From Escherichia coli (lineage in GTDB: Bacteria; Pseudomonadota; Gammaproteobacteria; Enterobacterales; Enterobacteriaceae): 64,000 nucleotides of DNA. Below the pieces are notes generated by a model, which saw only the letters and a program-made list of their open reading frames with translations, was not told where the DNA came from and searched no databases. Position 1 is the stretch's first letter, and each line of letters starts with the position of its first letter. The stretch lies in NCBI RefSeq assembly GCF_044324875.1, contig NZ_CP172185.1. One strand, 5' to 3'. A program made the translations under genes and the position numbers. Positions 9,020 to 44,856 of the stretch are shown here, piece by piece.

Positions 9020-9565
9020 AGCATCCTCTTAGGTTCAGAAGCTTAAGCACGTAATCGGTTATGTTTTCAAAAGTGCAAAACCAGCGAGTTCGGGCTTCAT
9101 ATCAGTGAATATTTGCCTGTCAGAAATGAACTCATGGATTCATTTTCAAATAAAAAACGCTCTGTAATATGACGGCGGTCACACTTATTAGCTGGGAGGT
9201 GACTTTATGTGACTACCATCACTTTAATAATCGAAATTTCATGCCCGTTTCAGAAAATAAATCATAAAAAACACAAACCCGATGACCGTATTAATTGTTT
9301 GTGCCGAAAACGGGCATTTCTGGCGAGGGGGAATGGAAAAATGACCGTTTTGATAAATATTTTTAAGAGCGGTCATTTTTAATAGGGTTATAAAAAGAGA
9401 ACTTGCAGTTATTTACTGTGATTAGTTGAACCAGGTCACAAAATATAAGCTTGTGAATTTCTTTCTGGTTAATCAGGAAGAAGATGGTGGGTAATTAAAC
9501 GGCTAATTCAATAGTGTGAAAGGAACAACATTATTGCCCTGTTTTGAATCAGAGAGAGGTAGCTA
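9020..9565. promoter_or_regulatory. divergent fucPIK / fucAO control region
   Basis: 546-bp AT-rich spacer between divergent operons; repeated TGACCG/CGGTCA motifs (9170-9183, 9282-9289, inverted pair 9341-9347 and 9370-9376) and inverted repeat ATGCCCGTTT (9241-9250) / AAACGGGCAT (9309-9318). Confidence 0.6.
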
Positions 9566-17954: not shown

Positions 17955-18021
17955 GTTTCACCGTCATAAACCAGATAAACTAAACGACAAGTGTATCTGG
18001 TTTAAGTGAAGAGAGAAATTA

Positions 18022-18567
18022 GTGGACGATTTGACCGCACAAGCCCTGAAAGATTTTACTGCACGCTACTGCGATGCGTGGCATGAAGAGCATAAAAGCT
18101 GGCCGTTGAGTGAGGAACTGTACGGCGTTCCTTCACCGTGCATTATTTCAACCACCGAAGACGCCGTATACTGGCAACCCCAGCCGTTTACCGGGGAACA
18201 AAATGTAAACGCGGTTGAACGCGCTTTTGATATTGTGATACAACCCACAATTCATACCTTTTATACGACTCAGTTTGCCGGGGATATGCACGCGCAGTTT
18301 AGCGATATTAAACTGACATTGCTGCAAACCTGGAGTGAAGACGACTTCCGTCGGGTGCAGGAAAATCTGATTGGTCATCTGGTGACTCAGAAAAGGCTAA
18401 AATTGCCGCCCACGCTATTTATCGCGACGCTGGAAGAAGAGTTAGAGGTGATCTCGGTGTGTAATCTCTCCGGTGAAGTGTGTAAAGAGACGCTGGGAAC
18501 ACGTAAACGGGCGCATTTAGCCTCAAATCTTGCGGAATTCCTTAATCAACTTAAGCCTCTTCTGTAA
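18022..18567 (+). CDS. syd: SecY-interacting protein Syd
   Basis: 181-aa ORF; synteny upstream of csrB. Confidence 0.9.
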
Positions 18568-18586
18568 TCCAAATACCCCATCTGGT

Positions 18587-18604
18587 TGTGAGAGATCTCT
18601 TACA
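18587..18604. promoter_or_regulatory. UvrY (BarA-UvrY) binding inverted repeat upstream of csrB
   Basis: TGTGAGAGATCTCTTACA, a 16/18 palindrome about 175-190 bp upstream of the csrB 5' end. Confidence 0.75.
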
Positions 18605-18777
18605 GACTCTGTAGGAGATCGCCAGGAAATAAGCGAATACTTAAAAAGATAAGAATCGTTATTTTCATTTAAAATCAATATATTGCTTGTTAATCCTTAA
18701 CTTTCATATTAAATTTTCCTTAAGGCATTGTCTGTAAGCGCCTTGTAAGACTTCGCGAAAAAGACGATTCTATCTTC

Positions 18778-19143
18778 GTCGACAGGGAGTCAGACAACGA
18801 AGTGAACATCAGGATGATGACACTTCTGAAGGACACACCAGGATGGTGTTTCAGGGAAAGGCTTCTGGATGAAGCGAAGAGGATGACGCAGGACGCGTTA
18901 AAGGACACCTCCAGGATGGAGAATGAGAACCGGTCAGGATGATTCGGTGGGTCAGGAAGGCCAGGGACACTTCAGGATGAAGTATCACATCGGGGTGGTG
19001 TGAGCAGGAAGCAATAGTTCAGGATGAACGATTGGCCGCAAGGCCAGAGGAAAAGTTGTCAAGGATGAGCAGGGAGCAACAAAAGTAGCTGGAATGCTGC
19101 GAAACGAACCGGGAGCACTGTGAATACAGTGCTCCCTTTTTTT
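18778..19143 (+). ncRNA. csrB: CsrB, CsrA-sequestering sRNA
   Basis: Begins GTCGACAGGGAGTCAGACAACGAAG; about 20 CAGGA(U)G / GGA motifs across 366 nt; ends with GC hairpin GGGAGCACTGT-GAAT-ACAGTGCTCCC plus T-run (19110-19143); between syd and yqcC as in K-12. Confidence 0.9.
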
Positions 19144-19188
19144 ATTCCTGCTATTCTTCGCGGCAGTTTTTCTTATTGAGGTTGCTTT

Positions 19189-19518
19189 ATGACCACTCAT
19201 GACCGCGTTCGTCTCCAGTTGCAGGCGCTTGAAGCGTTACTGCGTGAACATCAGCACTGGCGAAACGATGAACCCCAGCCGCATCAATTTAATAGTACCC
19301 AACCGTTCTTTATGGACACCATGGAACCACTGGAGTGGTTGCAGTGGGTGCTGATCCCGCGAATGCACGATTTGTTAGAAAACAACCAGCCGTTACCGGG
19401 CGCTTTTGCCGTTGCTCCCTATTATGAAATGGCGCTGGCGACGGACCACCCGCAACGCGCGCTTATTCTGGCTGAGCTGGAAAAACTGGATGCTCTTTTT
19501 GCGGATGATGCGAGCTAA
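19189..19518 (+). CDS. yqcC: DUF446 protein YqcC
   Basis: 109-aa ORF; stop overlaps truC start (TAATG). Confidence 0.85.
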   Translation: MTTHDRVRLQLQALEALLREHQHWRNDEPQPHQFNSTQPFFMDTMEPLEWLQWVLIPRMHDLLENNQPLPGAFAVAPYYEMALATDHPQRALILAELEKLDALFADDAS

Positions 19519-20300
19519 TGCTGGAAATACTCTATCAGGATGAATGGCTGGTTGCGGTAAATAAACCCTCCGGCTGGCTGGTTCACCGCAGCTGGCTGGA
19601 TCGCGACGAGAAAGTAGTGGTCATGCAAACCGTGCGTGACCAGATAGGCCAGCATGTGTTTACTGCTCATCGTCTGGACCGACCAACTTCTGGTGTGTTG
19701 TTGATGGGATTATCCAGCGAGGCCGGACGGCTGCTGGCACAACAGTTTGAACAGCACCAAATCCAGAAACGTTACCATGCGATTGTGCGCGGCTGGTTGA
19801 TGGAAGAAGCAGTTCTGGATTATCCACTGGTGGAAGAACTGGACAAAATCGCTGATAAATTTGCCCGCGAAGATAAAGGCCCACAGCCAGCAGTGACGCA
19901 TTATCGCGGTCTGGCGACCGTAGAAATGCCGGTAGCGACCGGACGTTACCCGACCACGCGCTACGGCCTGGTGGAACTGGAGCCGAAAACCGGACGCAAG
20001 CACCAGCTCCGTCGCCATCTTGCCCATTTGCGCCACCCGATTATTGGCGACAGCAAACATGGTGATTTACGCCAGAATCGCAGCGGTGCTGAGCATTTTG
20101 GCCTTCAGCGGTTAATGTTGCATGCCAGTCAGTTGTCATTGACGCATCCTTTTACTGGCGAGCCGCTGACTATTCACGCGGGCCTGGACGACACCTGGAT
20201 GCAGGCGTTATCACAATTTGGCTGGCGCGGTCTGCTTCCTGAAAATGAAAGGGTTGAGTTCAGTGCGCCATCGGGTCAGGATGGAGAGATAAGTTCCTAA
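19518..20300 (+). CDS. truC: tRNA pseudouridine(65) synthase TruC
   Basis: 260-aa RluA-family ORF with [12 protein letters not shown] catalytic motif. Confidence 0.9.
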
Positions 20301-20317
20301 TCCAGGGAGAAAACGGT

Positions 20318-20767
20318 ATGGCGGAAATTGGTATTTTTGTCGGCACCATGTACGGAAATTCGCTGTTAGTGGCGGAAGAAGCAGAAGCAATTCTGACCGC
20401 ACAGGGCCACAAAGCAACGGTATTTGAAGATCCTGAATTAAGCGACTGGCTGCCCTATCAGGATAAGTATGTTCTGGTGGTTACGTCCACGACCGGGCAG
20501 GGCGACCTTCCTGATAGCATTGTGCCGCTCTTTCAGGGAATCAAAGATACCCTGGGCTTCCAGCCGAATCTGCGTTATGGCGTGATTGCGCTCGGCGACA
20601 GTAGTTATGTGAATTTCTGCAATGGCGGCAAACAGTTCGATGCCTTGTTGCAGGAACAGAGCGCTCAGCGAGTGGGAGAAATGCTGTTGATTGACGCCAG
20701 TGAGAACCCGGAACCGGAAACGGAATCAAATCCGTGGGTCGAACATTGGGGCACGCTGTTGTCCTGA
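20318..20767 (+). CDS. yqcA: flavodoxin-like protein YqcA
   Basis: 149-aa ORF with flavodoxin fold motifs (VGTMYGNS ... [10 protein letters not shown]). Confidence 0.85.
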
Positions 20768-21201
20768 TACGTTCAGCGAGCGGTAAATGCCGTTTTAGCG
20801 GTGCTGAATCGAATCTTTTCAGGCAAATGCCAGTAAAAACTGCTTCATAGCGCGGATTTTTACTGGCGTTTGCCTGGAGTCAAGCGATCCATTTCATACT
20901 CTTCTTTATTTCTTCGTTTTAACCCTTCCTTTCTTGTTCTTGTTTTCATTTCCGTGAAGTGGATTCCACCGTCCAGGGCTAATGCCAAAATCGGGCCTCA
21001 TTGAACGCATTAATGTTGTGTTGTTGCACGGTGAGCCACTATGGCGCGCTTTTTATACTGCTATTGCCAGATATAAACACGCGCCGTATTCGGCGAACGA
21101 CCTATAAAAACGGCAAAAAACACCCTACGTCACCTCTGATTTCCTGGCGATGTCGCAGTCCAGAGTGAGCGTGGCTAACGCGAATTTTCAGGAGTGCAAC
21201 A

Positions 21202-22554
21202 ATGAGTTCTTTAAGTCAGGCTGCGAGCAGTGTGGAAAAACGCACAAATGCTCGTTACTGGATAGTGGTGATGTTGTTTATCGTCACATCCTTCAACTAC
21301 GGCGACCGCGCTACGCTTTCTATTGCCGGTTCGGAAATGGCCAAAGATATCGGCCTTGATCCCGTGGGAATGGGCTATGTGTTCTCTGCTTTCTCATGGG
21401 CTTATGTTATCGGACAGATCCCTGGTGGTTGGTTGCTGGATCGTTTTGGTTCAAAACGCGTCTACTTCTGGTCGATCTTTATCTGGTCGATGTTTACCTT
21501 GCTGCAAGGCTTCGTCGATATTTTTAGTGGATTCGGCATTATCGTTGCCCTGTTTACGCTGCGCTTCCTGGTCGGGCTTGCTGAAGCGCCATCTTTCCCC
21601 GGCAACAGTCGCATTGTTGCGGCCTGGTTTCCGGCGCAGGAAAGGGGAACGGCGGTGTCGATTTTTAACTCCGCTCAATACTTCGCAACGGTGATCTTCG
21701 CGCCGATTATGGGCTGGCTGACGCATGAAGTGGGCTGGTCACACGTCTTCTTCTTTATGGGCGGTCTGGGCATTGTCATCAGCTTTATCTGGTTGAAAGT
21801 CATCCACGAGCCAAATCAACATCCGGGTGTAAATCAGAAAGAGCTGGAGTACATCGCCGCGGGTGGCGCGCTGATCAATATGGATCAGCAAAATACCAAA
21901 GTTAAAGTGCCGTTCAGCGTGAAGTGGGGGCAGATCAAACAGCTGCTCGGGTCACGGATGATGATCGGCGTTTATATCGGTCAGTACTGTATCAACGCCC
22001 TGACTTACTTTTTCATTACCTGGTTTCCGGTTTATCTGGTGCAGGCGCGTGGGATGTCGATCCTGAAAGCGGGCTTTGTGGCTTCCGTTCCGGCGGTTTG
22101 CGGTTTTATCGGCGGTGTGCTGGGTGGGATTATTTCCGACTGGCTGATGCGCCGCACGGGATCGCTGAACATTGCGCGTAAAACACCGATCGTAATGGGC
22201 ATGTTGCTGTCGATGGTGATGGTGTTCTGCAACTACGTCAACGTTGAGTGGATGATCATCGGTTTTATGGCGCTGGCCTTCTTCGGTAAGGGCATCGGGG
22301 CGCTGGGTTGGGCAGTAATGGCAGATACCGCGCCAAAAGAGATCAGCGGTCTTTCCGGTGGCCTGTTCAACATGTTCGGTAACATTTCTGGCATCGTCAC
22401 GCCAATCGCAATTGGTTATATCGTTGGCACGACTGGCTCGTTTAATGGGGCGCTGATTTATGTTGGTGTTCATGCCTTAATCGCGGTGCTGAGCTACCTG
22501 GTGCTGGTGGGCGATATCAAGCGTATCGAGCTGAAACCTGTCGCGGGGCAATAA
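21202..22554 (+). CDS. gudP: glucarate/galactarate MFS transporter GudP
   Basis: 450-aa MFS ORF at the head of gudPXD. Confidence 0.9.
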
Positions 22555-44538: not shown

Positions 44539-44856
44539 ATCGTATTCCCATTTGTAATAGACAAAAAAAAGAGAAAAGTAAGCCGCCCTTTCAGGTGGAT
44601 TACTTTTCTCAGGTCTCTAGTAATTGCAATAAGAAATAACATGGAAAGCAGTGGTGTTGTGTGAGAGTAATCACGCTTCTGCTTTTTAAAATTATTTGAC
44701 AATTCGAATATCACACTGTGATTACGATCACATTAGCGATTATGCCCTTATGATAAAAATTATCTCCAGTTACCAGAGATAATGAGAAAGGTAACTTCCC
44801 TCTCGCGGGGGAAGTTACCTTTCTTTTTTTTTGCCTTACGGAAATTGGAGCTAACT

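Follow-up and report, generated by a model that had tools for sequence, protein, structure and literature searches.

Rho-dependent transcripts of Escherichia coli possess precise steady-state 3' ends that are located directly after stable stem-loops (Dar & Sorek 2018, PMC6061677). These stem-loops lack U-rich tails, the sequence downstream of them is enriched in C over G, and evidence has been provided that they protect the RNA against PNPase and RNase II (PMC6061677). The hairpin in the intergenic region between yqcA and gudP of E. coli that is analyzed here shares with them a stable stem-loop just before a precise end, the missing U-rich tail, the excess of C over G downstream, a Rho-sensitive region further downstream and its association with a weakly expressed gene. 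It is unlike them in that its helix of 26 bp and −39 kcal/mol far exceeds the typical terminator-sized stem in length and stability, in that it appears to have kept A5 and U5 tracts from a terminator-like ancestor, and in that Rho dependence and trimming are features which we infer for this locus.

The canonical bidirectional intrinsic terminator is the second system that bears comparison. The yqcA element resembles it as a 3' UTR hairpin with an A-tract and a U-tract around its apical stem and with an RNA end about 7 nt from the stem base, and U-runs follow the stem of the orthologues in Citrobacter, Salmonella, Superficieibacter and Raoultella just as in a canonical terminator. In E. coli, in contrast, both U-runs are part of the paired helix, GUCAAGCG forms the tail, the RNA end falls outside a U-tract, and the apical stem comprises just 4 bp with an 8-nt loop. 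With the REP/BIME elements that act as 3' stabilizers (e.g. malE-malF) the element would have in common that an intergenic hairpin blocks 3'-5' exonucleases and thereby sets a stable end of the upstream mRNA, but it is single-copy and devoid of the REP consensus. As in lambda sib/tI, read-through past a terminator-like core extends the helix into a long duplex; unlike the situation there, the yqcA 3' ends lie outside the helix.

The hairpin in the yqcA-gudP intergenic region

The DNA analyzed is a stretch of 64,000 nucleotides from E. coli, referred to as the window. In this window yqcC-truC-yqcA (yqcA at 20318-20767, plus strand) is followed by an intergenic region of 434 bp and then by gudP (21202-22554, plus strand), gudX and gudD; the CsrB RNA is found upstream of the yqcA region at 18787-19146 (Rfam scan of 18000-22000). 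The yqcA-gudP intergenic region differs from that of K-12 MG1655 at 4 of 434 nucleotides and the hairpin sequence is identical. Published K-12 coordinates were converted by window = 20822 + (2922480 − K-12 coordinate), the genes residing on the K-12 minus strand. The RefSeq record of K-12 contains no annotated feature between yqcA and gudP, and a full-text literature search for yqcA together with gudP or with terminator returned nothing relevant. An open reading frame at 20734-20850 (38 aa, GTG start) was considered fortuitous. The features of the locus that are required for the description of the hairpin and of the RNA end are as follows:

20318-20767, plus strand: coding sequence of yqcA (flavodoxin), with the hairpin in the 3' UTR of its mRNA (open reading frame list; E. 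coli RefSeq annotation)
20818-20839, plus strand: 5' arm of the outer helix, 22 nt, composed of the arm reported originally (20822-20839) and an outward extension (20818-20821) (RNA folds)
20840-20856, plus strand: apex with a 4-bp inner stem (20840-20843/20852-20855), an 8-nt loop (20844-20851) and the bulged A20856 (folds)
20857-20878, plus strand: 3' arm of the outer helix, 22 nt, containing U5 (20857-20861) and UUUGCC (20870-20874 plus flanks) (folds, alignment)
20882-20885, plus strand: published steady-state 3' termini of yqcA RNA (K-12 2922420, 2922418 and 2922417; PMC10687069, Supplementary Data 2, 3 and 4)

The original prediction described an inverted repeat with arms at 20822-20839 (GGCAAATGCCAGTAAAAA) and 20857-20874 (TTTTTACTGGCGTTTGCC), a spacer of 17 nt and complementarity at 17 of 18 positions. 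Coordinates and sequence proved correct, and 17 of the 18 positions are indeed Watson-Crick pairs; the eighteenth, T20828/G20868, forms a U·G wobble in plus strand RNA and an A·C mismatch in minus strand RNA. The 18-bp arms are therefore real, but the size given for the repeat understates its full extent, as the folded helix comprises 22 + 4 bp. RNA folding extends the reported arms outward by four further pairs, ending with U20818-A20878, and adds the inner pairs C20840-G20855, U20841·G20854, G20842-C20853 and C20843-G20852. The outer helix of 22 bp contains two U·G wobbles and no mismatch and is stacked on the inner 4 bp, and the small apical stem is flanked by the tracts A5 (20835-20839) and U5 (20857-20861).

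The 53-mer consisting of the two reported arms and their spacer has a minimum free energy of −32.6 kcal/mol (z = −8.5) that was equalled by none of 200 shuffled sequences, and the 61 nt from 20818 to 20878 fold at −39.1 kcal/mol. RNA of the minus strand folds more weakly (−26.0 kcal/mol, z = −5.9). Of all short-range inverted repeats in the 64-kb window the hairpin is the longest; just 6 repeats there have arms of at least 16 nt, and according to our own arithmetic repeats of such quality are expected by chance at about 1e-3 per 64 kb. The window holds other notable inverted repeats, namely a perfect one of 16 bp with an 8-nt loop at 44785-44824 (AGAAAGGTAACTTCCC/GGGAAGTTACCTTTCT), one of 17 bp located 200 bp upstream of it at 44571-44610, and a 22-bp palindrome with zero spacer at 9337-9380. 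A search of the E. coli hairpin against Rfam 15 with E values up to 10 yielded nothing credible; an overlapping hit to RF01864 (E = 4.7, 25.5 bits as compared to a gathering score of 90) was dismissed as noise. Five other genera likewise gave nothing beyond CsrB and noise, the Salmonella, Citrobacter, Superficieibacter and Raoultella loci yielding no Rfam match at E values up to 0.1 except for the upstream CsrB.

Mapping of RNA ends had been suggested as a check on the element, and published 3' ends of yqcA RNA are in fact found 4-7 nt beyond the stem, i.e. past the last paired base A20878, when their coordinates are converted via the identical K-12 sequence. RNAtag-seq of MG1655 in LB (Barsheshet data) places a peak at 2922415-2922427 with the dominant position 2922417 on the K-12 minus strand, Term-seq of BW25113 (data of Dar & Sorek 2018) a peak at 2922418-2922428 with the dominant position 2922420 that is significant in two of three replicates, and the RNAtag-seq data obtained in LB by Bar et al. 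(2023) themselves a peak at 2922416-2922425 with the dominant position 2922418 and a signal of 0.86 (PMC10687069). The combined limits, K-12 2922415-2922428, correspond to 20874-20887 in the window. The terminus is classified as 'distant primary' of yqcA with a 3' UTR of 118 nt, which means that no terminus lies nearer to the stop codon, and the longest U-run around it was counted as 3 (PMC10687069). The curated Term-seq list of Adams et al. (2021) contains no 3' end at the hairpin (PMC7815308), presumably owing to low expression. We are confident that the hairpin constitutes the 3'-terminal structure of the yqcA mRNA, whatever the mechanism that makes the end. As an element of transcript ends the inverted repeat is ordinary; it belongs to a well-described class and has so far gone without annotation.

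Conservation and descent of the hairpin

A sensitive blastn search with 20800-20900 as the query found the element in 5425 of 5426 complete E. coli genomes at one place per genome (median 1), and the hairpin region is at least 99% identical in 5379 of these 5425. A dispersed repeat of the REP/BIME, ERIC or MITE type was ruled out by this single-copy occurrence. The comparative set comprised 80 yqcA loci (L numbers), one per species of Enterobacteriaceae, most of which exhibit yqcA-gudP synteny. Conservation across the family, another check that had been put forward, was observed in the form of orthologous hairpins in Escherichia, part of Citrobacter, Salmonella, Superficieibacter and Raoultella. 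Hairpin-bearing species have long intergenic regions of about 420-515 bp, and a hairpin formed in all eight orthologues that were folded, each less stable than that of E. coli, with energies between −16.5 and −26.9 kcal/mol and z scores between −2.5 and −6.5. The flanking boxes can also be aligned in Silvania, Phytobacter and Kosakonia, where the stem is weak or different. In many species of Enterobacter and of the Citrobacter freundii group the module is absent and the intergenic regions are short (290-350 bp) with REP-like elements. REP-like GCCGGGTAAGGCG...GCCACCCGGC (CCCGGC) hairpins in L025-L036, L010, L012, L017 and L018 represent different 3'-end structures in the same slot. In Escherichia albertii (L016), L011, L015, L019 and others gudP was not found in the fetched sequence 3' of yqcA and the downstream sequence is unrelated; in E. 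albertii a different hairpin, GCCCTCTGATAATCAGAGGGC, follows yqcA.

RNAalifold did not return a single consensus pair on a MAFFT alignment of 20 sequences from multiple genera because the apical parts are not alignable across genera, and per-sequence folds and counts of the E. coli pairs were therefore used instead. On the 20-sequence alignment 75% of the cells are paired at the E. coli pairs as opposed to 30-51% after a shift of the partners by 1-3 columns. A single pair covaries clearly (A36-U68 in seven sequences, C-G in six and U-A in three), and the seven outermost pairs are specific to Escherichia. The evidence from cross-genus covariation is thus modest. Read on the plus strand, the pairs comprise 64 G·U combinations as against 26 A·C combinations, which would be G·U in the minus strand; within Escherichia alone the figures are 20 and 2. 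This asymmetry indicates that the molecule which folds is plus strand RNA. In a comparison of six Escherichia species 7 of 44 arm columns are variable (2 of 22 in the 5' arm, 5 of 22 in the 3' arm) as compared to 12 of 17 in the apex and 27 of 50 in the upstream UTR, and the changes in the arms are mostly C-to-U with retention of G·U pairing. As judged from the sequences, variation is distributed as in a helix that is under selection and whose loop is free. In other genera the apex is replaced by different short stems.

Most genera other than Escherichia possess a canonical terminator, CCCTCCCC (CCCTCCC)...GGGAGGG, directly 3' of the yqcA stop codon (e.g. L022:3448-3500, L007 and L023), and in Salmonella a T-run follows GGGAGGG. 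The distal hairpin of the sister genera lies about 100 nt beyond this proximal terminator, with (G/A)UUUUCA after its stem; the combination of apical stem and U5-6 resembles a regular intrinsic terminator in Citrobacter and Raoultella. The proximal terminator is absent from Escherichia, E. coli showing just a weak CGG-UAAAUG-CCG-UUUU at 20781-20796. In Escherichia, UUUGCC replaces the UUUUCA of the sister genera and pairs with GGCAAA, and four more pairs are added, resulting in the longer helix. On the basis of these comparisons the E. coli hairpin is most probably the orthologue of the terminator-like hairpin of the sister genera and derived from an ancestral intrinsic terminator, the A5/U5 tracts around the apical stem being readable as the remnant of a terminator-like core. 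The distal hairpin would have been strengthened in compensation for the loss of the proximal terminator.

Conserved boxes surround the hairpin. On its 5' side the box CTGAATCG(A/T)(G)TTAGC (20804-20815) is conserved; it is loosely similar to the downstream box (nTnAAnCGA), and the two boxes, about 76 bp apart, could be a direct repeat with the hairpin between its copies. On the 3' side a box composed of GTCAAGCGA(T/C)C and then TTTCA(T/C)ACTC (20880-20902) is almost invariant in all genera possessing it. It is also present in species without the hairpin (L037, L041, L068, L075) and missing where the intergenic region is short. The 3' end mapped for yqcA lies within this GTCAAGCGA box, which on the minus strand reads TTGAC(T) and is −35-like. 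TTTCATTTCCGTGAA is another invariant box of the region. A minus-strand promoter or sRNA (TTGACT-16-AAAAAT, 20883 to 20856) was considered as well; its −10 is poor and located inside a helix arm, no U-run follows the hairpin on that strand, and it is probably fortuitous. In the 5' arm GGCAAATGCC (20822-20831) forms a GGCA-N2-TGCC palindrome that is retained in most genera even where the hairpin differs, and a second copy, GGCGTTTGCC (20865-20874), occurs in Escherichia only.

Formation of the yqcA 3' end

The original prediction had stated that the hairpin, having no adjacent U-run, is not a classical intrinsic terminator, and this holds: a consensus terminator scan makes no call. A stable stem-loop, as demanded of a canonical terminator, is present (−32.6 to −39.1 kcal/mol). 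A U-rich tract of about 7-8 nt directly 3' of the stem is absent, and the 3' end does not fall within a U-tract, the published ends at 20882-20885 being located in GUCAAGC. Among the 8 nt after the full stem (GUCAAGCG) there is one U, and among the 8 nt after the CUGGC core (GUUUGCCU) there are four. The locus presents what Dar & Sorek (2018) described for Rho-dependent transcripts, namely a precise steady-state end just past a stable stem-loop, seen in three data sets, no U-rich tail and more C than G downstream. Two features further downstream are relevant in this context:

20886-20965, plus strand: G-poor, pyrimidine-rich tract, candidate rut region (9 G and 16 YC dimers in 80 nt)
21184, plus strand: peak of a bicyclomycin-sensitive, i.e. 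Rho, termination region (K-12 2922118, minus strand; PMC7815308, Supplementary file 2; resolution of hundreds of nt)

Compared with the whole window, the tract at 20886-20965 is at the 0.8th percentile for its G count and at the 97.6th for its YC count. The C/G ratio of 20880-20957 amounts to 2.86, and the orthologous tracts in Citrobacter and Salmonella also contain more C than G; the C content of the downstream tract is just about 23-26%, and the tract is richer in U than in C. The Rho region is located about 300 nt downstream of the hairpin on the same strand. There, 3'-end reads upstream and downstream numbered 114 and 23 in untreated cells and 112 and 90 with bicyclomycin, with a Rho score of 3.98 and p = 9e-8 (PMC7815308), so that the downstream/upstream ratio, taken over 800-nt windows, rose from 0.20 to 0.80. 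The peak at 21184 falls into the gudP leader, 18 nt before the gudP ATG.

Point by point, the features of the locus match the description of Rho-dependent ends by Dar & Sorek (2018), and from this match we infer that the yqcA end is Rho-dependent as well. We consider it probable that Rho terminates yqcA transcription downstream and that exonucleases trim the RNA back to the protective stem-loop. A polymerase leaving yqcA would transcribe the 61-nt hairpin (22 + 4 bp, about −39 kcal/mol) and in most cases would probably not be released there, because a U-tract is absent. It would continue into the G-poor, YC-rich stretch in which Rho can load, and the published bicyclomycin data together with the base composition suggest that Rho would terminate transcription a few hundred nucleotides further on at most, ahead of the gudP start or close to it. 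The ragged 3' ends would then be trimmed by 3'-5' exonucleases (PNPase, RNase II) until these stall at the hairpin, and the stall would leave the sharp, stable end that has been mapped 4-7 nt past the stem. The hairpin would thus set and protect the yqcA 3' end and, together with Rho, exclude yqcA read-through from the separately regulated gudPXD operon. Several counterpoints have to be considered. Apart from the missing entry in the curated Term-seq list and the C content of just about 23-26% in the downstream tract, the Rho region of Adams et al. could reflect the action of Rho on the leader transcript from the gudP promoter instead of on yqcA read-through, and an end 7 nt from the stem base is also expected from direct hairpin-driven release.

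The latter leads to the main rival explanation, according to which the hairpin itself is the terminator, either as a degenerate, non-canonical intrinsic terminator or as a hairpin-stabilized pause with release at about 20885, in both cases without Rho. The dominant end C20885 lies 7 nt beyond A20878, which is the usual distance between stem and end in intrinsic release, the exceptional stability of the hairpin favors a terminator, and the orthologues with a stem plus (G/A)UUUUCA and an inner stem plus U5-6 look like intrinsic terminators. Elemental pauses follow the consensus G−10 Y−1 G+1, and by sequence reading G20876, C20885 and G20886 agree with it. However, the RNA:DNA hybrid formed by the 7-nt tail GUCAAGC would be strong, unlike the weak rU:dA hybrid that is required for intrinsic release, part of the U-run of the relatives has been lost in E. 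coli, and the hairpin is not detected by the consensus terminator scan. Furthermore, the increase of the downstream/upstream ratio to 0.80 with bicyclomycin argues against an efficient Rho-independent stop. In view of these points we regard termination by the hairpin itself as possible but doubtful.

Regulatory readings of the element

It is also conceivable, though quite unlikely, that the ancestral intrinsic terminator was remodelled in Escherichia, by the change from UUUUCA to UUUGCC and the loss of the proximal terminator, into a near-perfect duplex of 26 bp that acts as a regulated element beyond a passive exonuclease barrier, for instance as a target of RNase III or ProQ or as a hairpin-stabilized pause. 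Such an element, together with the invariant GTCAAGCGA box, would set the leak of yqcA transcription through the CdaR-controlled gudPXD promoter.

Another reading would regard the 22 + 4 bp duplex as a target of RNase III, or of a dsRNA-binding protein of the ProQ type, that controls yqcA mRNA decay in a similar way as lambda sib. RNase III prefers a duplex of about two helical turns, and a 22-bp helix with two U·G pairs and no mismatch that is stacked on 4 bp has about this length; the confinement of the helix lengthening to Escherichia might mean a newly gained function. Yet the abundant yqcA 3' ends are located outside and not inside the helix, and nothing connects yqcA with control of the RNase III type, which renders this possibility very unlikely. 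Trimming back to a protective stem-loop after termination by Rho remains our preferred explanation.

The original prediction had offered two readings that relate the repeat to gudP, and their assessment requires the region upstream of this gene. Between 20945 and 21201 the following blocks are strongly conserved across genera:

20945-20960: conserved block TTTCATTTCCGTGAAG with an internal palindrome
about 20975: conserved block GGGCTAATGCCA
21012-21036: conserved block AATGTTGTGTTGTTGCACGGTGAG
21050-21059: conserved block TTTTTATACT, −10-like

After TTTTTATACT comes a leader of about 135 nt that is highly conserved and might act as an attenuator; the blocks themselves are candidates for CdaR and promoter elements. 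The conserved, −10-like TATACT of gudP is located about 180 nt downstream of the mapped 3' ends as judged by comparison across genera.

A binding site for the gud regulator, the first of these readings, found no support. That the palindrome serves CdaR or another regulator as a DNA operator, at a long distance from the gudP promoter, might seem to be suggested by its position in the gudP upstream region, by the two very conserved boxes CTGAATCG and GTCAAGCGA at its flanks and by the small GGCA-N2-TGCC palindrome at 20822-20831 that is kept in most genera. However, the arm has no counterpart in the garP-garD region: when the 18-nt arm was compared with the 374 bp of this region in K-12, the best match was 12 of 18 positions, which is chance level, and there were no shared words of at least 9 nt. 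The arms covary between genera with pairing kept instead of retaining their sequence, and the wobbles, which are tolerated on one strand, favor RNA over a DNA operator. Known operators do not resemble arms of 18-22 bp around a 17-nt spacer, the palindrome is situated about 190-250 bp upstream of the putative gudP −10, and the whole module is missing from many species of Enterobacter and Citrobacter in which the yqcA-gudP arrangement is intact. An operator function is thus barely plausible.

The second reading, an RNA structural element in the gudP leader, was right as to the RNA element and wrong as to the leader, since the hairpin belongs to the yqcA 3' UTR. The hairpin does share the strand with gudP and lies upstream of it, but that it is a structural part of a long gudP leader starting at a promoter upstream of it is the least probable explanation of all. 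A search for plus-strand promoter-like sites between yqcA and the hairpin, where 55 nt separate the stop codon from the arm at 20822, gave none, RNA 3' ends and not 5' ends map at the hairpin, and the promoter-like conserved blocks of gudP are located downstream at 21012-21059, with TTGCACGGTGAG ... TATACT at 21025-21059.

The findings are of little importance outside the yqcA-gudP locus. For annotators they entail the caution that hairpins in 3' UTRs without a U-run are usually transcript-end structures and not operators. The yqcA transcription unit gains a defined 3' boundary, the published ends having so far been present only in supplementary tables, and the arrangement proposed here would account for the insulation of the constitutive yqcC-truC-yqcA from the glucarate-inducible gudPXD operon. 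Finally, the locus may serve as an example of terminator turnover, in which a proximal canonical terminator was lost while the distal hairpin was lengthened and at the same time lost its U-run, and as such it bears on the interconversion of intrinsic and Rho-dependent transcript ends.
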